A DNA stretch of 63,968 nt, filler included, from Rhabdomonas costata (Eukaryota): NCBI GenBank assembly GCA_019059605.1. It is 29 parts of 29 records of this genome, joined end to end, with 100 filler letters (N's around TTAATTAATTAA, not from the genome) between each part and the next. Parts side by side here need not be neighbours in the genome. Positions count along the whole stretch, not along the records: positions 4,441 to 6,560 come from JAHMHO010005486.1; 28 more parts are not named here. One strand, 5' to 3'. A model generated the notes under the pieces. The model saw only the letters and a list, made by a program, of their open reading frames with translations. It made no database searches and was not told the origin of the DNA. Within the stretch, counting starts at the first letter, position 1. Every line of letters starts with the position of its first letter. A program made the position numbers and the translations under genes. Below, in pieces: positions 4,441 to 60,349 of the stretch.

Positions 4441-5070
4441 TGTTGGGGAGCATCCGTGGACTGGTGCTGGTGATGTTCCTTGTGGTGGGTGTTGCGTTGG
4501 GGTTGGGTGTGGAGGGTGTTGCGTTGGACGGTGGTGTTGCTTTGGCTCATGGTATTCCTTCTGTGTCACGTTGGGGCTGTTGGTGTTGGTGTCGTTGGCT
4601 TGCTGTCTCTGTCTCTGTCTCTGGGTCACGGTTTGGGTTCTGGTTGCGTAGGGTGGAGGGTGTGGGTCGTTGGAGGAGGAGGTGTGGTGGCTGTGCTTGG
4701 AGGGTGTTCGTGCTTTCGTGTCTCTTGCTTCTGTGGAGGGTTCTAGTGCTGGGTCTGTGTCAGGTGTTGCTTCTGCTTCCGTCTCTTCCGTCTCGTTCTG
4801 CTTCTGTCTCAGGTTCTGCTTCTGGGTTCGTGTCTCTGTCTCAGGGTTCTGCTTCTGTGGGTCATGCTGTCTGTGCTGGAGGAGGGTCTGTGAGGGAGAG
4901 TGTCTGTGCTCGTGGTGTGTTTGGTGCTTGTGCTGTTGTTGGAGAGGGTTCTGTGTGTGGTTCTCTGGAGGGTTCTGTGGAGGGTTCTGTGGAGGGTTCT
5001 ATGTCTCAGGTTTCAGTGTCTCTGCCTTCGCTTTCTGTCTCTGTCTCTGCCTCTGGTGTCCGTTCTTCGG
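4441..5070 (+). repeat. A-depleted, G/T-skewed low-complexity tract with short tandem duplications
   Basis: No AA dinucleotide seen in 630 nt. (GGAGGGTTCTGT)x3 lies at about 4967-5000 and (GTCTCT)n runs recur. Confidence 0.85.
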
Positions 5071-6206
5071 AAGTCCTTCGGGATCTCCAATCTGGAGTTG
5101 GTCCAATGCTCACGGCCAAGGCTTCAACGCTACCGTGATTGCCAGGGGGCAAGGCACCTGTGGTATCATCAACACTCGCAGCTTCCGTGCTCAACAACTT
5201 ATCGACGATCGTTCCCAGTGTCCTGAGTAGTATTCCTCCCGAAGTTCAACGCCTGGGCTGACATCGTTTCACTGACCGAGTCAACGCGAACCACGTGAGG
5301 ATACAGGTATCACGGTGAGGCTATGCAACGTCGCGCGTAGCGCGTCAACCCCTGTTGTTCCTGCGCTAGTAGTGGCTGGAGGTGAGCTAGGACTGACACC
5401 CTGACCCTGCGTTGGGTACGTCAACTTAGCCTCCAGTGATGGACATGAACCCTCACCTTATGCGTGTAGTAGTGCTGGGTAGGTTACCCAAGGTCGACCT
5501 GTGTATGGCCAGCGAAACCATGCATAGGGGACAATAAACCCACTCCACCCACACGAGGGAAGTGATTGAGGTGAGGGGCCACCCAATGCCTTCACTCAAC
5601 CCACCGTACCCGAGTCACGCACTCCATGGCAGTGGTTGAGGTGACATGGTGACCGGTTATGGCGCTATGCACAAGGGAGTACCGTAGAGTAGCAATACCC
5701 TACGCGTTACAACCTCAGCATAACGTCTACGCTCAAGCCTTGTCACCCGAACCCTGTTGTGGATGTTGCCCACCCGTATGGTGATGGTGGTACGGTATGC
5801 CTAGCAGCAGTGACGCTATGCCATACCCTCCATCGTAGCCAGCACCAACGCATGACAGAGGGGATGTAGGAGATTGAGGGGGAGTGACACCGATTCCTAA
5901 GGGTAACGCCAAGGGTAAAGAGACGCATTCCACCACCACCGCTCCATCACCCAGGGAGAAGAGAGGAAGGGATGGCTGGTAGAGGCTGATGGCTAAGGCT
6001 GAAGCACAAGCAGATGCTGCGGTAGATGCCACTCCAACCATGCTAACCCTCTGCACCCGTTCTGAGGGGCTACGAATGCAAGGAAGATGCAGAAGTGGCG
6101 TGAGGGAGGGAGGGAGGGAGGAACGTAACCATCGTAGGGTGGTGAAGTGACGACCTACAGGAAGCAAAGGGTATCACCGATGAGGATACAAATATGATTC
6201 ATGATG

Positions 6207-6319
6207 GTTCGCTCCCCGACTAACGTCGGTACGCTCACTGGGTCGTCGTCACTCACTTCGTTCGTTCCTCCTCCTAGATGTGGTGGTTCAGTCGCTCCAC
6301 CGCATGACGGTTACGCTCC
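6207..6319 (-). other. Cluster of three strand-specific hairpins with tandem sheared G.A pairs (double-hairpin-like ssDNA structure)
   Basis: Minus strand: 6319-6291 G-GA-GC-GTA-ACCG-tcatg-CGGT-GGA-GC-GA-C; 6274-6242 G-GA-G-GA-G-GA-AC-GA-AC-[GAA]-GT-GA-GT-GA-C-GA-C-GA-C; 6238-6207 GT-GA-GC-GTA-CCGAC-[GTTA]-GTCGG-GGA-GC-GA-AC. Confidence 0.8.
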
Positions 6320-6891
6320 CTAATACGTTCCCTAAAATAATCATTGATCTGATCAGTGATATGTTACAGCCGAAAATAATCAGTCGTTTGTTTGCCAGCT
6401 CTAATGACGGGTAAGTCCTCACTTCAGGACACATATCCACCCAGATTCTTTCGGTAGCATTTGCCATTGGCTGCTGAGCTCAATCAAGGCTTGCAGATAA
6501 CCGCATACAGACCCTCCCCACCCCCACCCCACAGCCCACCGCAACCTTCGGCACCCGGCGNNNNNNNNNNNNNNNNNNNNNNNNNNNNNNNNNNNNNNNN
6601 NNNNTTAATTAATTAANNNNNNNNNNNNNNNNNNNNNNNNNNNNNNNNNNNNNNNNNNNNGTTGGTTGGTGGTACGCGTCACTGACCCTTTATTCCGTAA
6701 AATCAGTGAGAAAAGTAATTTGTGCAAGTATGAAATAGTTTTCGAAATCACAAACAGAGAAGAAATTATGCAAAAATGCCCGAGATAAGTGAATTAACCG
6801 AACGATGCTGGTTGTCTTTTTCGCGGGGATGGTGTCAACAGCGTCGTTTCTACCTTTGACTATTGGGAGGGTCGCACCCCCGCCGGCGAAG

Positions 6892-7343: not shown

Positions 7344-8779
7344 GGGGAGTAGCCAAACGAGCACCCAATACTACTGCCTCCACAGGTCGGGTTGGCTGCA
7401 GGCAGAGACACCAAGTATCGCAGCAATGCTGATAACCGAGCGAAAAATTCAGACAGAGCAGGGAGAGAGAGAGTAGGGTGCCAGAAAAAGAGCGCTTGGT
7501 GAACGAAACCTGGAAAAAGCAAGCAGGAAAGGAACGCAGTGGAAAACCCCTGAACTACCCACGCAAAAGACGAGACACCAATACAGCATTCGTTCTGGGT
7601 GCAGGCGAACAGGGCGCAGGGTGAGGCAGAGTCCTTTGCGGTGTAGCCCGAAGGGCAAGTGTAATGGGCACCTCCACAAGTCTGGTTGCCTGACCGGCGC
7701 GCGCAATAGAACATATGGCATATGGAGAAAAAACTTGAAAAAATGTCTCTTTAAACAAAGAGTCAACATCCTCGAACGTCACAGAACCCATCACCACAAA
7801 GCATCGGAAAGCAACTCGGTAGGAAAGGAAGAAAAGGCACCAGAGCTGAAGGCCTGCGCAACGGCGGCCATCCAGGGCTCGCGGGAACCAACCGGAGCAC
7901 TGGGCAGATAGCCCTGAGTTCCAAAAGAAAAAAAAACAAGAGCCCACCGCAACACAAAGCAGTGCTATTGGAAAATCAGAACCGCATACCTGAGTTAACT
8001 CCCACACAATTACACCCCCATAGCCGTGGGACTTCGCAAAGTCCCCCTTCGCCTGGATTGCCGCCGCATCGTCGAAGGAGAGGTACTTGCAGCCCATGCT
8101 GTTGGCCGCGGGTAGGCTCCAGTACGCACACTGCGCCGCAGCGTCCCAGTGACGATATTGTGGCTGACTCTCATAGGTCTGAGCCAGAGCAACGTAATCG
8201 AAATACTGAATGGAACCGCTGATCCTATCAGTCACCTGATTGGGCGCAGTGATTCCACCTGAGTAAGAAGAAACAAAAGTCGCGAGAAAAAAAGAAAACG
8301 AAACACAGCAAGCCGAGATCTTTCCTTTGACAGTGGGACTCCCGAAACGGTGCGTGGTCGGTCCTTTCACTCTTGGGCAAAACATAACAAAAAGAGGAGG
8401 TGCACAGATTCTGAATGCGCGCGATAACCTGTGTAGCAAATGCCGAAGAACCCAATCCCAAGCCCCAGCTTAGCCGCGGGCACCCCAAGCTGAACGTATT
8501 TGGAAAGAGTGTCGTCAATCGCCGCGGGTGTGGCTGCCTTGTACCCCGAAAGTGGAGACGAGTGCCAGCTCAGCCAGCCTGACCCCCACATCGGTACGCC
8601 ATAGCTCATGATATTGATCTGGTCCACTACTTGAGAGAGCGGGGCAAGAAAGGCCGGGGCCGCAGTGTAGGGCCAGTACATGCCATACGCCACGGTAATT
8701 AGAAAATTGCTGCCTCCCGAGGCACGAAGAAGCTGAGCCAGCAGCACCAGCTTGTTTCCATCAAAGGAGTCTTCCCAAA
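7328..8779 (-). CDS. GH18 chitinase (C-terminal two-thirds of the barrel) plus Cys-rich repeats, partial
   Basis: Exons 8779-8429, 8258-7990, 7913-7841, 7689-7579 and 7395-7328. The contig edge starts at WED (end of the DxDxE motif), followed by VDQINIMSY, GVPAAKLGLGIGFFG, YLSFDDAAAIQAKGDFAKSHGYGGVIVWELTQGYLP, then TCGGAHYTCPSGY...CC and a truncated second repeat. Confidence 0.9.
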
Positions 8780-12419: not shown

Positions 12420-13219
12420 CAAGGCCTCAACACACTCACACCATCAGACCCTACGACTCAGCTTGGCATTGCGAATCCCACACCCACCCTTCGACCTGAC
12501 ACAGAAACACGAAACGCACCAACCCTCCAACCATCGACACGTGAAACCATGACACCTAGCCCCTCGAACCCACGAACACAGAATGCCGATACCCTACGCA
12601 CCACAGACCCTGACACCCTGACGCCGTGAAACCATGAGACCGTGAGACCTTGACACCGTGACACCATGAGACCTTGAGACGGAGACTGAGACGAAGCATG
12701 AGAGCATGGTTGTTGAGAGCATGGTTGTTGTGAGCATGGTTGGGGTGAGCATGGTAGAAGTGAGCATGGTTGAGACGGACGTACAGCAACAGCACCAACA
12801 GCACAAGCCCTGACAACGGAATCGCGAACACCAACACCCACTGACCCTGACCCTGAAATCCTGACACCCACAGACCCCAGAATACCAACATCACCAACAT
12901 CATGACATCTACCGTAGGATTAGCGCTAGGAACCAGCATCAGGACATCTTGCGTAGGAATCAGCGTAGGAATAGCGTAAGTTACTGACATCAGGGTAAGC
13001 GTAAGGGTGGTGGTGGGATTCTGCGTAGGGAGTGGTGTGGAGGGAATGCATCGGCCTGTTGCTCCCCTTCGCTCTGACACCCCTTCACTCTGACTCAGCT
13101 TGGCATCAGAGGCATTAACAACAGAGGTACGCATCAAGGCATCAACAACAGCAGGCATCCTCACATCCGTAGCATCAACCCTCACACTCCACTTCACTTC
13201 AACCCTCCGATCCATGACA
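12420..13219 (-). repeat. Skewed low-complexity tract resembling 4441-6190, including a 15-nt tandem repeat
   Basis: About 5 copies of GWGAGCATGGTNNNN at 12700-12774, plus many short duplications (GAGAC, CCCTGA, CGTAGGAAT). The minus strand shares words with 4441-5070 (TGCGTAGGGT, TTGGAGGGT, TTTCGTGT, TCTGTGTCAGGT). Confidence 0.75.
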
Positions 13220-28391: not shown

Positions 28392-28877
28392 CTGTGACAC
28401 GGAAAAGGAGGAGAGTTCACCACTGCGTGTGGGCCTCGGGTGTGGAAAGAGATGCCTTCGTAGAAGGGGAGGAAAAACAAGCCTCTGAATTCATTTCGTT
28501 TCCAGGTGCGATTTCGGGTGCCAAATGAGCCGAGCGTTTCCAAAGCTACCAGGAAGAACCAAGGGAGCCCAACTTTACAGCGTACTTCCACAGTCTTTGC
28601 CGTAGAGACCGTGTCTGCTTTTGGGGCTATCGCTTGTCATTTGGCGGGTACTACTTAGCGTCAAAATTTTCCACCAACCACGATGAAACGAAACCATGAC
28701 CGCATGACGCGCTGAAAACTATTCCTCAGTGCCATATAACCAACATTTCCACACCCCCNNNNNNNNNNNNNNNNNNNNNNNNNNNNNNNNNNNNNNNNNN
28801 NNTTAATTAATTAANNNNNNNNNNNNNNNNNNNNNNNNNNNNNNNNNNNNNNNNNNNNGTGGTTGTGGGGTTCTCCA

Positions 28878-28981
28878 CAGGACAGGTTCTTTTAGAAGCA
28901 GGGGGTTAGGTATACTTTGCCAGGTTCCCCAGGACAGGTTCTATTAGAAGCAGGGGGTTTGGCTAACTTTGCCAGGTTCCC
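28878..28981. repeat. 52-bp tandem duplication, 2 copies
   Basis: CAGGACAGGTTCTWTTAGAAGCAGGGGGTT...ACTTTGCCAGGTTCCC starts at 28878 and again at 28930. Confidence 0.9.
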
Positions 28982-29086
28982 CCACTAACGGACTGTTTTT
29001 TTATCTTGGGCAGCAGAGCGCAGCGAAGCGAAGCTGTGCTCCGCGTTCCTGGGTGTGGGGTTAGGAAGCGATGCACTCCCATCTAC

Positions 29087-33290: not shown

Positions 33291-35350
33291 GTTTTGTGGT
33301 CACTGCCTGTACTGGGGTGCTACGGTGGTTCGAAAGCCAGGTCTGCGTGGAAGACGACTCCTCCACGTTGCGACGTCAGAAGCTCACCATGGGCATCGTC
33401 CTGTGCTCCCTGTTCGCGTGCCCCATCTTTGTTGGAGTTCTAGGATGGTGGCAGGGGTTCACCCTTACCTCAGCCTCGGTGGCCTCGATCGGGTACTTTC
33501 TGGGAGGGCTGCCCGTGGCTGGGGCCCTGCTCGCCGTTCTGGTCCGCACCAAATCGCTGAGAGGGATCCGGGCGGTGTTTCTGGGGGGCCAGCTTGCGGG
33601 AGTGCCGGTGTTCCTGGCCTTGAACGGGGGATTTGAGTACGGCTCCTTGGTGGGTATCCAAGTGGTCTTAAACGTTGTGATGGCGTTTTTGCTGTACGAG
33701 AACTTCGTCGTGCCCATCGTGTGCTTCTCTGTGTCGTCAGTCACGATGGCTGGGTGGGCCGTGTACGAGGCCACCATGGGCCTTCCCATTCCCTACGTGT
33801 ACGACCGGCCGGCTCTTGTCCTTGAGCACGCCGCGGTGTGCGAGGTCGTCGTTTTTTTTGTGCTGGTGGCTCTGTGGTACATGCGGTACGCCCTGCGGCA
33901 AGAGATCCTGGAGCACATCGCCGAGAAAGCCCGAGCGGTGGCTCTGGCGGAGGCCCGAGCCGAGTTTGTGGCTCGGATGTCCCACGAGATCCGCTCTCCG
34001 GTGAGCTAGATTTGTCTTTCGTGTCGCTCTGTTTCACGTTTTACGACTGAGGATGCGGGTTTGACCAGAAAAGTGCTCCCTTGTGTGTTCGTTTGATTTT
34101 CTAATGCCGCGCCTCTTATTTTGTGCTATTTCCCCGCGAAACCCCCACACTCCCCTTAACCACAACAACTTTTTCTCCCACGACGGCATGCTTGCGTAGT
34201 TGATGACGGTCTGCACTTGAGCAAAGGAAAGATTTCTTTCTTTCAGCTCACGGGGATCATTGGGCTGACGGAGCTGCTGGCGCTGACCCCGCAGAACGGC
34301 ACGCAGCGGCAGTACACTGGCTCGATAGGGCTGTGCGGGCGCGCCCTGCTGAGCGTGGTCAACGACGTCCTGACCTTCGCGAAGCTGGAGGCCAGCAAGG
34401 TCAGCCTGGAGAGTCACTGGTTTGACCTGCGGCAGTGCGTGGAGGGCGCTGTGGCGGTACTGCGGAGCGGGCTGTGTTCCAGCGCGGTGGAAGTGGTGGT
34501 CGAGCTGCCGCGGGCCATTCCACACACCGTGATGGGGGACGAGACGCGGGTCACCCAAGTGCTAATCAAGTGTGCTGTGCGTTTCGGACTAGTTCCCGTG
34601 CAGGTGCCTTGCAGTGTGTTTTCGTCGCTGTTTTTTTGTTTTATCGTTTAGGTTTTTGCGATACTAGCGGATCATCTGGGGAGGACAGAAGACATTCTCA
34701 TCAGTAGTTTTGTCCACGCACCATTGGTTTTCTTTGGCCTTAATCCTCTCACGCTGGCCAATGACCAAGCTGATGCGTCACCCTCATTGGTTGTTCCATG
34801 CATTTCTTTTGCCTTCCAAACAGCCTGCTCAACAACGCCAAGAAGTTACCCGAGAGGGGCTGATTACCCTTGAGGTGGAGTACGTGTGTCGCTCGACGAG
34901 GTCCCCCGCAGGCACGGCCATCTTCCCTCACGCCCACGCCGAGGGTCCGGAGGCGGACACGGAGCTGGGCGTCGTCCCTTCCACCTCCGCCACCACTCAG
35001 CTGGTCTCCTCCGAGTCTGTGAGCGTGGGCATGGATCAGAGCCTGGTGTTCCACGTTCGGGACACTGGGATAGGTCTCACTACGTCGCAGAAGAGGAAGC
35101 TCTTCCAGCCCTTCACCCAGGCCGACGTCTCGACGACGCGGAAGTTCGGGGGCACGGGGCTGGGTTTGTGCATCTGCAAGCAGCTTTCAGAGCTGTGGCA
35201 AGGGGAGGTCCATGTGGAGAGTGAGGGCTTGGGCCGGGGCAGCCACTTCTGGTACACCCTTCCCCTGCGCCCCCCGCCGCCGGCCTCTTCGCGGCAGGCC
35301 GTTGTCTTGCCCAAATTGGTGGCGGTTGTGGATGGGCTGCAGGCCCGGGC
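33291..35350 (+). CDS. Multi-pass membrane sensor histidine kinase (probably hybrid type) with one frameshift
   Basis: Exons 33291-34000, 34247-34569 and 34824-~35350. About 5-6 hydrophobic helices precede the H-box FVARMSHEIRSP|LTGIIG, N-box GDETRVTQVLIN|LLNNAKK(F)T, G1 VRDTGIG, F-box LFQPFTQAD and G2 FGGTGLGL. One base is missing at 34847/34848. Confidence 0.92.
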
Positions 35351-35583
35351 GAGGGCAATGAGGGAGCTGTTTTCGCAAAAGCCTAAACGATAAAACAAAA
35401 ACCCNNNNNNNNNNNNNNNNNNNNNNNNNNNNNNNNNNNNNNNNNNNNTTAATTAATTAANNNNNNNNNNNNNNNNNNNNNNNNNNNNNNNNNNNNNNNN
35501 NNNNGTGTGGAGAAATAGTGTCGGATTCCCTTCCAGATGGGCTGTTAAAGATCGGCTTTCGTTGTGTGTTGTGTTGGGTTCAG

Positions 35584-51024: not shown

Positions 51025-53083
51025 CTGTTTGTGTGAAGGAGCTGGTACGCCTCATGGGCGGCACGGTGGTTTCCATTCATTGCTCTGGCGATTTCACTGA
51101 GCACGAGTTCAAGGGGTGTTTTGTGCCAGTTGGAAACAGCTTCGACTGGCAGCCTTCCGTCCTGGTGGAGGCCTATGCCACCCATGCCAACGGGGCTGCG
51201 TCATTCACAACCGACACCCCGCCAGACCCCAAACCCAAGGCTGTGGTGCTCCTTGAGGATATCGACCAGGTTGAGGCGGCGGTGCAGCTCTTTTTATTGC
51301 CTTTCCTTGATCCCCGGAGGGAAGTTCTCTTTTTGGAGGGTCAGGCCTCTCCGGTGAACCCCAGGAGCATCACCCTGATCGCCACGTGCACCACCACGGA
51401 CCTCTCCTCTGCAGCAATGCAGACGGTGGAGGGCCACTTCATGGAATCCAGGATGGACATCCTCAGCACCTGGGAGCTGAGCGTCATCCTCAGCCATCTC
51501 CTTACCAGCATCTCAGACAACTTGGGCAAGCTCCTGCACAGCCTTCACCACGAGCTCTCGAAAAAGTTCGACCAGGGCCTCGCCACCTTCAACCTACGAG
51601 ACGCGATAAAGTTCTGTGACTTGCTCCGCAGCCTGGGTGTGCCTGGGCGATGCAGCTGCAGCCCCAACGTTCTGGTGGGCCTTTCCGCCCTGCTGGCCTA
51701 CGCGGAGGGTCACCCTCGACTTCAGGACCGCGAGACCGCCCGGAAGTTCATTCTGGACAAGCTGCGGGAGCTGGGGATTCTGGACGTGAAGAAGGAGCAG
51801 CTCTTTCTCGCGGAGGTTAGTAGGGGCAGCAAGATTTTCGGGCACCTTCAGCTCGTCGAGGGCGATTTAGGTGCAGAGCCTGAGGGCCTCGAAGACGGGG
51901 AGGGCCCCGACAGCTTCGTATACACGTGGTACTCCGCCCGGCTGCTGCAGATCATCGCCATGATGTCCACCAGCCGCCGGATGGTGGTCGTTGAGGGCCC
52001 CACATGCAGCGGGAAGACCGAGGTTTTGGGGGAGCTCGCCGTGCTGTTCCGGCAGAAGGTTTTGACGGTCTCCCTGCACTCCGAGACAGAGGTTTCGGAC
52101 CTGCGAGGGGGCTACGCCGCCCTTATCGTGGATAACACCGAACCCTGCTCCGAGGAGTTGAACGTTATCGTGGGGCAGCTTCTGAAGCGCATGACGCACA
52201 AGGATATTATGGACTTTTCCGCGGAGCTTATCAAGGCGGTGTGTGACCCCCAATGTGGTTCACGGCCTGCCACGTCCTTAAAGACCATGTGGTCGTTAAT
52301 AACATCACAGTTCGTCACTGTTTCTACTGTTATCATTTGTTAAAAAAAAAGTAGCACCTGTTGGTTGGGGGTTCAGCTTTTCAGTACCAAGGCCAGCATG
52401 ATAGGCTTTCTGTTTCATATTAGATGGGCAGGTTGAATTTCAAAGCCCGTCCCCCGTCCCGATCCCTTGCACTATGCACTCTCAGTCCATATCTCAGCTT
52501 CTGATCGCTCATGTTATGTTGTAGTGTTCCGTTCCTGTTCACCATGCATTGCAACGTAATTGGAAGGTTCTGTGACGTTGAGTCCCCGCTCCCTAAATTA
52601 AATGGTGGTGCCGTCGTTTCCGTCGTCCATATAATTTTGCTGAGATGACAGGTTGAATTAGGATGAAGCCAGAAAGGTTCCGGCTTGGTCTTTTGTGCTC
52701 AGGACGGATCTGCCGGGCTTCTCCAGAGGGCCTGCGACGGGCCCTCCGGTGAGCCGGGGCACCCCCCAACGGCACAGCAATCACTGCTCACCGCCCCAAC
52801 AGCCACCGACGACGACGACGAGGGGCAGCAGCTTGAGCTGCAGAGGACATCCTGGAGGGCCACGGTGGACGCCGTGAGAACCCGTGTCAAATGCCACGCG
52901 CCCGACTTGCTCGGACCGCTGGAGGACCTGATCCAGAGGCAGAACTTGGAACGGCACACCTTCTTTGCAGCTGACGGTGCGTGGCACCTCCCCCTTCCCA
53001 CAGACGACTGCGTTGTCCCTCAAGAAGCGAAAAATTTGCAGCTTTGGGCAGATTGCGCCGGGAAGTCGGTAGATTCAGGTGAG
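51025..53083 (+). CDS. Midasin-like tandem AAA+ ATPase, partial
   Basis: A long exon (51025-~52312) holds a first AAA module (SIHCSGDFTEHEFKGCF...FDWQPSVLVEA...VLLEDID...FNLRDAIKF) and a second with Walker A VVVEGPTCSGKT and SLHSETEVSDLRGGY. A probable further exon lies at 52703-~53083. Confidence 0.75.
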
Positions 53084-59300: not shown

Positions 59301-60349
59301 CGCGTTCCGCGGGTCCCTATTCCAGTGGTGTCTGAGGCGAACAGGCTCACCTCCTCTTCATTGAAATCCATTGTCAATATGGTTTAGGAGATGGTAAAAT
59401 GTAGTGCCCAGACTTTGGGTGGTGGGCAATCTAAATTAGTGTACCGAAATTCCAGCGCGTCTTCCGGCTCGTTCCGCGCGATTCTAAAGAAAGCAATAAA
59501 GGCCGCTCCTTCGGGAAAAATCTTCGGGAAAAAACTGCAAACGCGGGGCCTCTGTGAGCTAAAGGTGGGCCTTGCCCGATAAGTTGTTTCGTGTTCCAAA
59601 TGCCTGTGGCCATTGCCCGCGCTCCACCTGACAGAAACGCTGTCCACCGTTTTCTCCGCAAATTTCTTGGCGGGAATCTTACCGCGCACCGCGGCCACAC
59701 GCAGTTCACACGAACGTTCCCCTTTCCCCCGCGGACAAAGCGCCCAAAAGCCTTCATGGAATGAAGTGCCAAGCTTTTTCCGGCCACAAAAACNNNNNNN
59801 NNNNNNNNNNNNNNNNNNNNNNNNNNNNNNNNNNNNNTTAATTAATTAANNNNNNNNNNNNNNNNNNNNNNNNNNNNNNNNNNNNNNNNNNNNGGTTGTG
59901 GGGTTGGGCAAAGGAAACCTTGCCCGAGCATGCGCCACACCCCCGCTTCGACAGTATGAGGCTGCAACGACTGCAATTGAGCCCCTTTTGGTTTTGTGGT
60001 CAGCTCAAATAACATTGCAGTGGTGTGATTGGATTACGGGCCCTCGCTGAATCCCGAACCGGAGCAGGGCAGCAGCTCTGGTACAGCAATAAACACCGGG
60101 CGGTGACCCCGCAGGCAGCAGCAGCAGCAGCAGTAGCGTCGGCGAATCCGGAACGGTTCCGGATTCACATGCGAATTTTCAGACTGGTTCCTCTTTCTCT
60201 TCGGTGGCTCGGCCCGTCTATTTCTGCCTCTTCCCTAACTGCGCCCAGGCGCGCGAACGTGGCAGCGGTTGGCAAACGCCGCGTGAGCTGTGTCTTCTTT
60301 TGAACAGCTTCCACCTGCCGTGCGGACAATTTCCCAGTGAAGCTTTCCT

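Follow-up and report, generated by a model that had tools for sequence, protein, structure and literature searches.

The window analysed here, 63,968 nucleotides of DNA from Rhabdomonas costata, is a stitched pseudo-molecule made of 29 unrelated contigs of 1,858–2,140 bases each, ordered by length and joined by linkers of the form N44-TTAATTAATTAA-N44. The feature that concerns us lies on the 2,120-nt contig at window positions 4441–6560; because the window is stitched, genes outside these limits are meaningless as neighbours of the locus. The locus itself spans about 250 bp (6069–6319) and consists of five hairpin modules in a mirror arrangement about a central palindrome: the two on its left (P1 and P2) use the plus strand, the three on its right (M1–M3) the minus strand (Table 1). 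The three minus-strand hairpins had been described in a first-pass annotation of the sequence; P1 and P2 had been overlooked. AT-rich tracts flank the modules.

Table 1. Modules and associated features of the hairpin locus, in window coordinates. Minus-strand modules are written 5' to 3' on the minus strand.
Feature	Positions	Strand	Sequence or description
P1	6069–6099	+	GCTAC-GAA-TGCA-AGGAAGA-TGCA-GAA-GTGGC
Purine tract (GGGA)4-GGA	6104–6122	+	Runs into P2; counterpart of the (GGA)3 tract before M2
P2	6115–6156	+	AGG-GA-G-GA-AC-GTA-[ACCATC GTAG GGTGGT]-GAA-GT-GA-C-GA-CCT
Watson–Crick palindrome GTATC-N9-GATAC	6171–6189		5 bp; midway between the plus- and minus-strand modules; appears in the minimum-free-energy (MFE) fold
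M3	6207–6238	-	GT-GA-GC-GTA-CCGAC-GTTA-GTCGG-GGA-GC-GA-AC
M2	6242–6274	-	G-GA-G-GA-G-GA-AC-GA-AC-GAA-GT-GA-GT-GA-C-GA-C-GA-C
M1	6291–6319	-	G-GA-GC-GTA-ACCG-TCATG-CGGT-GGA-GC-GA-C
Tandem 12-mer TTAGGGAACGTA / TTAGGGAGCGTA	6312–6335	-	Second copy is the 5' scaffold of M1

One plan is common to the five modules: closing Watson–Crick pairs, a tandem GA/GA step, two Watson–Crick pairs and a GNA cap. The two-pair step is either GC/GC or AC/GT, a double change that keeps the pairing, and the cap is either a GNA triloop or a Watson–Crick inner hairpin set between two GNA elements. M1 and M3 take the form GA-GC-GTA-[hairpin]-GGA-GC-GA, with one or two closing pairs each, and M2 the form GA-AC-GAA-GT-GA, lengthened by further G/C and AC/GT steps. 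P2 joins an M2-like G-A zipper scaffold to an inner hairpin resembling that of M1, giving GA-AC-GTA-[hairpin]-GAA-GT-GA with an M2-like extension; compared with M1, its inner stem is ACCA/TGGT instead of ACCG/CGGT and its 2-bp step AC/GT instead of GC/GC, both of them paired changes. P1 holds AC-GAA-[hairpin]-GAA-GT within a stem of five outer pairs (one of them G-T), with a GAA/GAA junction and an inner hairpin of 4 bp. In each arm the modules all occupy the purine-rich strand, the purine content of the plus strand being 72% over 6061–6165 and 36% over 6207–6319.

All that had been stated about the sequence of the three minus-strand hairpins was borne out by re-inspection. The scaffold GAGCGTA-N13/14-GGAGCGA occurs twice on the minus strand, at 6318–6292 and 6236–6209, and matched in none of 100 shuffles; the inner stems are, as claimed, ACCG/CGGT in M1 and CCGAC/GTCGG with a GTTA loop in M3. 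These stems do differ, which had been read as internal covariation, but they have CCG/CGG in common, so that the covariation is small: one copy has an extra outer A-T pair, the other AC/GT on the inside. The similarity between M1 and M3 reaches a blastn E value of 0.47 in a self-comparison of 660 nt. The middle hairpin, M2, contains 7 Watson–Crick pairs and 4 tandem GA/GA steps around AC-GAA-GT and is the best hairpin of its type in the window, its length of 15 being attained in none of 40 whole-window shuffles (maximum 13). A further mini-hairpin had been pointed out at 5332–5344 (CGCGC-GTA-GCGCG). It is present, but its GTA loop is on the plus strand, opposite to the three hairpins, and its occurrence is at chance level: the window holds 61 sites with a 5-bp stem and a 3-nt loop, 9 of them GNA-looped against about 7.6 expected.

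Short repeats are frequent in the locus. They comprise TTAGGGARCGTA (twice), (GGA)3, (ACGA)2, (GTGA)2, (CGA)3, (GGGA)4, GAGCG(T)A (four times) and TGATTATTTT(A/C)GG (twice). Since the 5' scaffold of M1 is the second copy of a tandem 12-mer (Table 1), local duplication had a part in building the locus. Over the whole window the motif GAGCG(T)A shows no enrichment, with 36 occurrences against an expectation of about 40; four same-strand copies nonetheless fall within 110 nt, at spacings of 21, 61 and 22 nt. Under the G-A rule this motif is 'complementary' to itself, and four direct copies therefore yield two 'scaffolds' without any selection. The left and right arms resemble one another only marginally (local score 34, equalled in 15 of 300 shuffles), for which reason a long inverted repeat was rejected as an explanation of the whole. 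An alignment of the four modules with an inner hairpin by MAFFT was not in register.

The plan was searched for throughout the 64-kb window with two metrics, both designed after the reported hairpins were known. The strict scan asked for at least two Watson–Crick pairs, GNA, a perfect hairpin of at least 4 bp, GNA and again at least two Watson–Crick pairs. It returned four matches, all at 6072–6316 and two per strand: M1 and M3 on the minus strand, and two at 6072–6096 and 6123–6148 on the plus strand. As the rule had been derived from M1 and M3, its detection of P1 and P2 amounts to an internal replication. Junctions of other types gave 0–2 matches each, apart from TNC, whose 4 matches are the mirror image of those of GNA. 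Local shuffles gave a single match in 15 of 3,000 cases and never more; when each arm was shuffled separately, keeping its own purine-rich dinucleotide content, 6 of 3,000 had one match and none had more. Shuffles of the whole window averaged about one match, and since 3 of 100 reached a total of at least 4, it is the clustering of the matches, not their count, that is unusual.

The broad metric, which required Watson–Crick pairs together with at least two GA/GA or GNA/GNA steps, likewise matched four times in the window and only in the locus (P2 on the plus strand; M1, M2 and M3 on the minus strand). One of 1,000 local shuffles had a match, and 25 window shuffles gave 0, 1 and 2 matches in 21, 3 and 1 cases, respectively; six other independent step types produced 0–2 scattered matches, none of which was in the locus. 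Neither scan found a module in the other 28 contigs (about 60 kb). Specificity was lost when the module scan was relaxed to admit G-T pairs and 3-bp stems, with 44 matches window-wide. We consider a chance origin of the cluster excluded. The hairpins are a real, strand-asymmetric, G-A-based signal, as had been proposed: the scans match this locus only, and neither the shuffles nor the step-type controls reproduce the cluster.

Equally good structures in shuffled sequence, which the first-pass annotation had taken to speak against its own reading, do arise for fold energy but not for architecture. The reported 141-nt stretch, which is the right arm, is equalled by 117 of 200 dinucleotide shuffles when folded as DNA (z 0.32) and by 102 of 200 when folded as RNA (z 0.03). 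With RNA parameters, however, the proposed fold is the MFE structure on the purine strand for 5 of 5 modules, and the complement is weaker in all five. Three modules beat their shuffles as RNA: P1 (-9.9 kcal/mol, z -4.32, 0/200 shuffles as good; complement -4.5), P2 (-16.3 kcal/mol, z -3.72, 0/200; complement -4.7) and M3 (-12.6 kcal/mol, z -2.88, 1/200; complement -8.9). M1 reaches -8.9 kcal/mol (z -1.41, 23/200 shuffles as good; complement -5.4), and the MFE fold of M2 is weak at -3.3 kcal/mol (z -1.19), with its complement unfolded at 0. The left arm as a whole has a z of -4.26 as RNA (0/200 shuffles as good), and 306 nt of the plus strand, whose fold uses arm-to-arm pairing, a z of -2.87 (0/100). 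With DNA parameters no module or arm beats its shuffles (z -1.23 for P1, -0.12 for P2 and -1.89 for M3), and for M2 and P2 the DNA MFE structure is not the proposed one, P2 being predicted to fold otherwise. The DNA parameters of ViennaRNA, which indicate no excess stability for the modules, are not known to take account of sheared G-A pairs or mini-hairpin bonuses.

The contig that carries the locus has a GC content of 0.55 and a CpG observed/expected ratio of 0.63, and the range of the other 28 contigs includes both values. About 660 nt of it, one third, is microsatellite-like DNA. In trinucleotide distance it is the most deviant of the 29 contigs (0.043 versus 0.015–0.035), probably owing to that microsatellite-like third, and we do not take the deviation as a sign of foreign origin. 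Elsewhere in the window there are eukaryotic gene fragments, for example an open reading frame (ORF) of the midasin/dynein-type AAA_5 family whose nearest Atlas clusters are eukaryotic, as well as a GH18 and a HATPase_c fragment. When the 10 ORFs of the contig were compared with Pfam, no family scored above its cut-off, and the sole match, NADH_B2 (E 0.017), was under its cut-off. A 146-aa ORF at 5736–6173 on the minus strand had no homologue among sequences of near length. A coding reading of the hairpin locus was rejected, given that its two scaffolds are in different frames and that the 10 ORFs have no credible Pfam match. Scans for tRNA and tmRNA returned nothing, no Rfam covariance model matched the window at its gathering score, and a lenient Rfam search of 5700–6560 gave chance-level matches only (E 2.6 or worse).

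Three of the hairpins had been taken to mean that the contig derives from an element with a single-stranded DNA stage, an organelle chromosome, a plasmid or a virus. This derivation is not borne out by a gene-less piece of 2.1 kb with the GC and CpG values of the other 28 contigs. A check of the flanks for HUH/Rep or polymerase genes, which had been recommended, found none among the 10 ORFs of the contig, nor any primase family (Pfam matches with E up to 1), an absence that is weak in a contig of merely 2.1 kb, and blastn of the contig against phages and plasmids gave no match. That the locus signals replication or mobilisation for an HUH/Rep element, single-stranded DNA virus, plasmid or organelle DNA, of which the contig would be a piece, we regard as very unlikely. 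Such a signal would agree with the AT-rich tracts that flank the modules, with the sheared G-A mini-hairpins recorded at phage complementary-strand origins, at RSF1010 ssiA and in N4 promoters in the accessible sections of PMC13037366, and with a look-alike phage hairpin (L249, below) that sits in an origin-like layout beside five direct repeats. Besides the lack of Rep, HUH or primase matches in the ORFs and of phage or plasmid matches to the contig, it is opposed by the GC content and CpG depletion that the contig has in common with the neighbouring nuclear contigs, by the microsatellite-like third, which is unlike compact single-stranded DNA replicons, and by the lack of viral matches to the exact M1-type hairpin. 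Two of the five modules are, moreover, on the opposite strand, a poor fit to a signal read on one packaged strand; origins of the CRESS, parvovirus or ssi type would have their hairpins confined to the one strand that exists as single-stranded DNA, whereas here two are on the plus and three on the minus strand.

Hairpins of the M2 kind occur in viral contigs. The 20-nt core of M2 is matched exactly (20/20) in 6 of them, each with a different outer Watson–Crick stem. When the inner step was left free (GAACGA-NN-GAA-NN-GAGTGAC), NN and NN were complementary in 12 of 15 viral matches, 6 with AC/GT and 6 with GC/GC; the chance expectation, estimated from the 3 non-complementary matches, is about 0.01 matches per single 20-mer. 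In the zipper hairpins L245–L252, from uncultivated phage contigs, Watson–Crick dinucleotides alternate with GA/GA steps around C-GAA-G, as in M2; they differ in lying between phage genes and in having long outer Watson–Crick stems (up to 13 bp, in L249). One of them, L251, is a zipper of 10 Watson–Crick pairs and 4 GA steps whose (GGGA)n/(GACC)n arms resemble those of M2 and P2. In the phage contig L252, two hairpins per arm form an inverted pair in an intergenic gap, the layout of the locus described here. L250 belongs to a T7-like phage with a single-subunit RNA polymerase and a T7-type terminase, and its hairpin is intergenic on the sense strand; that of L249, a phage contig with PhoH/PIN, lies in the gap between divergent genes and adjoins five direct repeats, a layout like that of an origin. 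Convergence between the phage hairpins and the protist locus is plausible because the design space is small. The exact M1-type pattern gave 0 matches in viral contigs. A loose single-scaffold scan of viral sequences found at least 118 loci, and inner stems of 0, 1, 2, 3, 4 and 5 bp occurred in 79, 30, 6, 2, 0 and 1 of the matches listed, a chance-like distribution; the sole 5-bp case among them (L099) is a phage intergenic hairpin adjoining a ribosome-binding site.

The two-scaffold pattern of M1 and M3 was found at 79 metagenomic loci, where the inner stem is flush and 3 bp or longer in 16 of 83 matches, the chance level being about 1.6%. The flush matches belong to several tandem-repeat families in which the GA step is closed by 4–5 outer Watson–Crick pairs. 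Reference genomes added a further 8 of 75, including a repeat family in an Anaeromyxobacter metagenome-assembled genome (MAG). The 14-base scaffold of M1 and M3 recurs identically in the repeats L123/L176, L125, L157, L166, L173, L192 and L212/L227 (Anaeromyxobacter MAG), which have flush inner stems that differ from family to family and outer Watson–Crick stems that close the GA step. Their period is 75–90 nt, compared with 82 nt here, scaffold and spacing agreeing by construction. They differ in their inner stems, which are GC-rich and G-first, and in outer stems of 4–5 bp against 1–2 bp here. No Rfam family covers these repeats, and a literature search by sequence string for the bacterial repeat returned primer coincidences only. 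All the outside loci were found by searching with the scaffold itself, and their agreement with it is partly by construction. Covarying variants, which the first-pass annotation had proposed to look for, thus exist elsewhere, in the complementary inner step of 12 of the 15 viral matches and in the differing flush inner stems of the metagenomic repeats. These sequences show the plan to be a genuine structure that recurs and covaries in phage and metagenomic DNA, which does not imply common descent with the locus at 6069–6319.

Mini-hairpins built on G-A mismatches are known chemistry. Their known biology is, to our knowledge, confined to satellite repeats and a handful of start sites in phages and plasmids. 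As set out in the accessible sections of PMC13037366, mini-hairpins sit at replication and transcription start regions; sheared G-A mini-hairpins are placed there at the complementary-strand origins of G4, St-1 and alpha3, at RSF1010 ssiA and in N4 promoters, and GTTA is an accepted loop, with GCGTTAGC at the St-1 and alpha3 origins. The GNA/GNNA loop closed by C-G, known from the mini-hairpin DNAs d(GCGAAGC) and d(GCGNNAGC) of Hirao and colleagues (same sections of PMC13037366), is found here in M2 (C-GAA-G) and M3 (C-GTTA-G). The tips of these two modules obey the loop rule, by which a sheared G-A pair is possible on a C-G pair; the loops of the other three modules differ. The model DNAs have two G-C closing pairs, whereas the AC...GT tips of M2 and M3 have one C-G and one A-T pair. 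The cap is here lengthened by alternating Watson–Crick and tandem GA steps, or the loop is replaced by a GNA-flanked inner hairpin, and the host is a eukaryote. One-strand folds with sheared G-A pairs in purine-rich eukaryotic repeats, as here, are also formed by the G-A hairpins of purine-rich satellites such as human satellite III (PMC11014236); these are long arrays of a single unit, unlike the one composite locus of five modules with Watson–Crick inner hairpins.

REP sequences have a conserved GTAG at the hairpin foot. This tag is missing from the present locus, the junctions of which are GTAA, GTAC and GAAT. The REP/REPIN system of bacteria, with its RAYT transposases, resembles the locus in layout: the passages of PMC3337134, PMC3116915 and PMC3479197 available to us describe small non-coding hairpin repeats with two inverted arms around a spacer, defined by their fold and thought to be active as folded single strands. 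REP/REPIN elements are bacterial, whereas the locus is eukaryotic, its arms are only marginally alike and it has no copy in the other 60 kb or so of the window. A MITE or foldback transposon would have terminal inverted repeats, a target-site duplication and multiple copies; here the arms are weakly alike, the locus has no clear ends from which a target duplication could be defined, and the window holds no other copies. Box C/D snoRNA, K-turn, sarcin–ricin loop and hammerhead, and equally a Helitron 3' end, the CRESS nonanucleotide and an excision footprint, were rejected by eye for want of fit to the consensus of each. The nonconventional introns of euglenids follow the code 5'-N3-CDG ... CH'G-N5-6, with a purine at the exon start and pairing just inside CAG/CTG (accessible text of PMC12501133). 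Measured against that code, the modules were rejected as such introns: they have CCG...CGG, with a disallowed middle C, and the only minus-strand CAG (6240–6238) and CTG (6160–6158) pair outward, not inward.

The locus has a defined, non-random and strand-asymmetric architecture, and its plan recurs elsewhere with covarying Watson–Crick parts. We tentatively favour, at less than even confidence, its being a REPIN-like hairpin element, defined by its fold, of the same kind as REP/REPIN elements or mini-hairpins, and lodged in ordinary non-coding nuclear DNA. Its hairpins would fold when the duplex opens, in replication, transcription or cruciform extrusion, and recognition or regeneration of the fold would account for the persistence of the element. 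A reading at the level of DNA is favoured by the C-G-closed GAA and GTTA loops, the mirrored placement of modules on both strands, the layout like that of a REPIN and the analogues in phages; the single locus in the window and the failure of every module to beat shuffles with DNA parameters speak against it.

An RNA model fits at least as well as far as folding is concerned, and tandem GA steps are stable in RNA too. The modules could fold in two convergent RNAs, or in one RNA with arm-to-arm pairing, as processing, stability or protein-binding hairpins of a UTR, an intron or a non-coding RNA. Such a role is in keeping with the RNA MFE structures of all five modules, with the margin by which P1, P2 and M3, the left arm and the 306-nt plus strand surpass their shuffles, and with the L250 hairpin, which stands on the sense strand between genes. 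We nevertheless think it rather unlikely. The right arm is no better than shuffled sequence, Rfam gave chance-level matches at best, and neither a coding gene nor a homologue was found on the contig (the ORF homologue search being confined to near lengths). The euglenid intron code as accessible in PMC12501133 is likewise not followed, and loops such as GAA and GTTA closed by C-G are of the DNA mini-hairpin types, not GNRA or UNCG, going by the available sections of PMC13037366. Rather doubtful, too, is an origin devoid of function, in which slippage and small direct or inverted duplications in purine-rich, cryptically simple DNA left a sequence that is quasi-palindromic under the G-A rule. 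The wealth of short repeats in the locus, the 660 nt of microsatellite-like DNA on the same contig and the ordinary fold energy of the reported 141 nt are what such an origin would leave, and the scaffolds that M1 has in common with M3, and M2 with P2, by descent make for fewer than five independent events. Yet shuffles that keep arm composition produced even one module in just 6 of 3,000 cases, and within this purine-rich DNA no comparable hairpins arise from AG/AG, AA/AA or GG/GG steps. Slippage leaves unexplained the complementary spacers in mirror order (G G G AC AC versus GT GT C C C), the flush, fully paired inner stems of four modules and the matching unit numbers in the two arms of M2 and of P2, and the same plan is found, with covariation, in unrelated viral genomes.

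The four same-strand copies of GAGCG(T)A within 110 nt might instead be protein-binding sites in duplex DNA, to which the hairpins would be incidental; in favour is their clustering in a window where the motif is no commoner than expected. This is most unlikely: direct repeats account neither for the flush inner hairpins, the closing pairs and M2 nor for two plus-strand modules with a different scaffold (AC...GT). A bolder proposal goes beyond the REPIN-like element favoured here and makes the locus the eukaryotic representative of a class of DNA hairpins that is defined by fold and spans the domains, with modules in common with phage intergenic hairpins and bacterial repeats. Under it, a 'sheared G-A hairpin code', read on transient single-stranded DNA, would mark DNA opening, priming or the copying of elements in viruses, bacteria and a protist nucleus, and the protist may have acquired the locus from a virus or bacterium. 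We hold this to be quite unlikely.

The structural insight of the first-pass annotation was right; the origin from a single-stranded DNA element that it drew from this is unsupported. What lies in this protist is a eukaryotic chromosomal case of G-A hairpins, the M2 core of which matches phage hairpins base for base over 20 nt. Together with the 14-base scaffold held in common with bacterial repeats, this identity suggests that the plan is a structural signal open to reuse, rather than a peculiarity of a single genome. Should the modules turn out to be neutral by-products or to signal in RNA, the finding would be a minor one; if the fold is confirmed in DNA, the locus would offer a compact, testable case of how hairpins with non-Watson–Crick pairs are maintained and recognised in a nucleus.

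The window is a pseudo-molecule in which 29 contigs of about 2.1 kb each stand in order of length, with 100-base linkers of the form N44-TTAATTAATTAA-N44 between them. Because these contigs are separate, genes that lie near a given feature but in another contig are unrelated to it. Contigs other than the one with the G-A mismatch hairpins hold the gene fragments listed in the table, of which the AAA_5/midasin-like one has its closest Atlas clusters among eukaryotes.

Immediately outside M1, one of the minus-strand G-A mismatch hairpins, a pair of CC(T/G)AAAATAATCA copies lies within an AT-rich stretch with TGATCA palindromes. Elsewhere, GAATCCGGAAC-G-GTTCCGGATTC is the longest Watson-Crick hairpin from the hairpin scan of the window; its 10-bp palindrome is perfect and its loop measures 3 nt. 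Microsatellite-like DNA is frequent throughout the window contigs.

Coordinates of features in the window and in metagenomic and phage contigs
Feature	Location	Strand	Details
CC(T/G)AAAATAATCA, two copies	window 6331-6343, 6370-6382	+	39 nt apart
GH18, C-terminal part	window 7555-8469	-	gene fragment
52-nt tandem repeat and several short-period arrays	window 28874-28982 and 12605-12978		52-nt repeat: 2.1 copies, 91% match
HATPase_c domain	window 34668-35393	+	gene fragment
AAA_5/midasin-like ORF	window 51027-52343	+	fragment
10-bp palindrome	window 60144-60166		
Tandem hairpin arrays	L166:6890-9291; also L123, L176, L125, L157, L192		
Fluoride riboswitch	L137:87-148		55.1 bits; metagenomic contig
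Imperfect inverted repeat	L252:5792-5916		phage intergenic gap
M2-type hairpin and neighbouring direct repeats	L249:9772-9816 and upstream	-	13-bp outer stem

In metagenomic contigs, hairpins of the ATCCC-GAGCG(T/C)A-hairpin-GGAGCGA-GGGAT type form tandem arrays with a period of about 80-90 nt. These arrays are covered by no Rfam family, and a literature search by sequence string returned no paper.

Among the uncultivated phage contigs with hairpins resembling M2, the middle hairpin, are L252 and L249. In L252, each arm of the inverted repeat carries two G-A zipper mini-hairpins on that arm's purine strand, with the caps GCGAAGC and AC-GAA-GT. The other contig, L249, is 58 kb long, and its genes include PhoH/PIN and a glycosyltransferase. 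Divergent genes flank a gap of 1.2 kb in which the hairpin adjoins direct repeats, five copies each about 11 nt long; this layout is origin-like.
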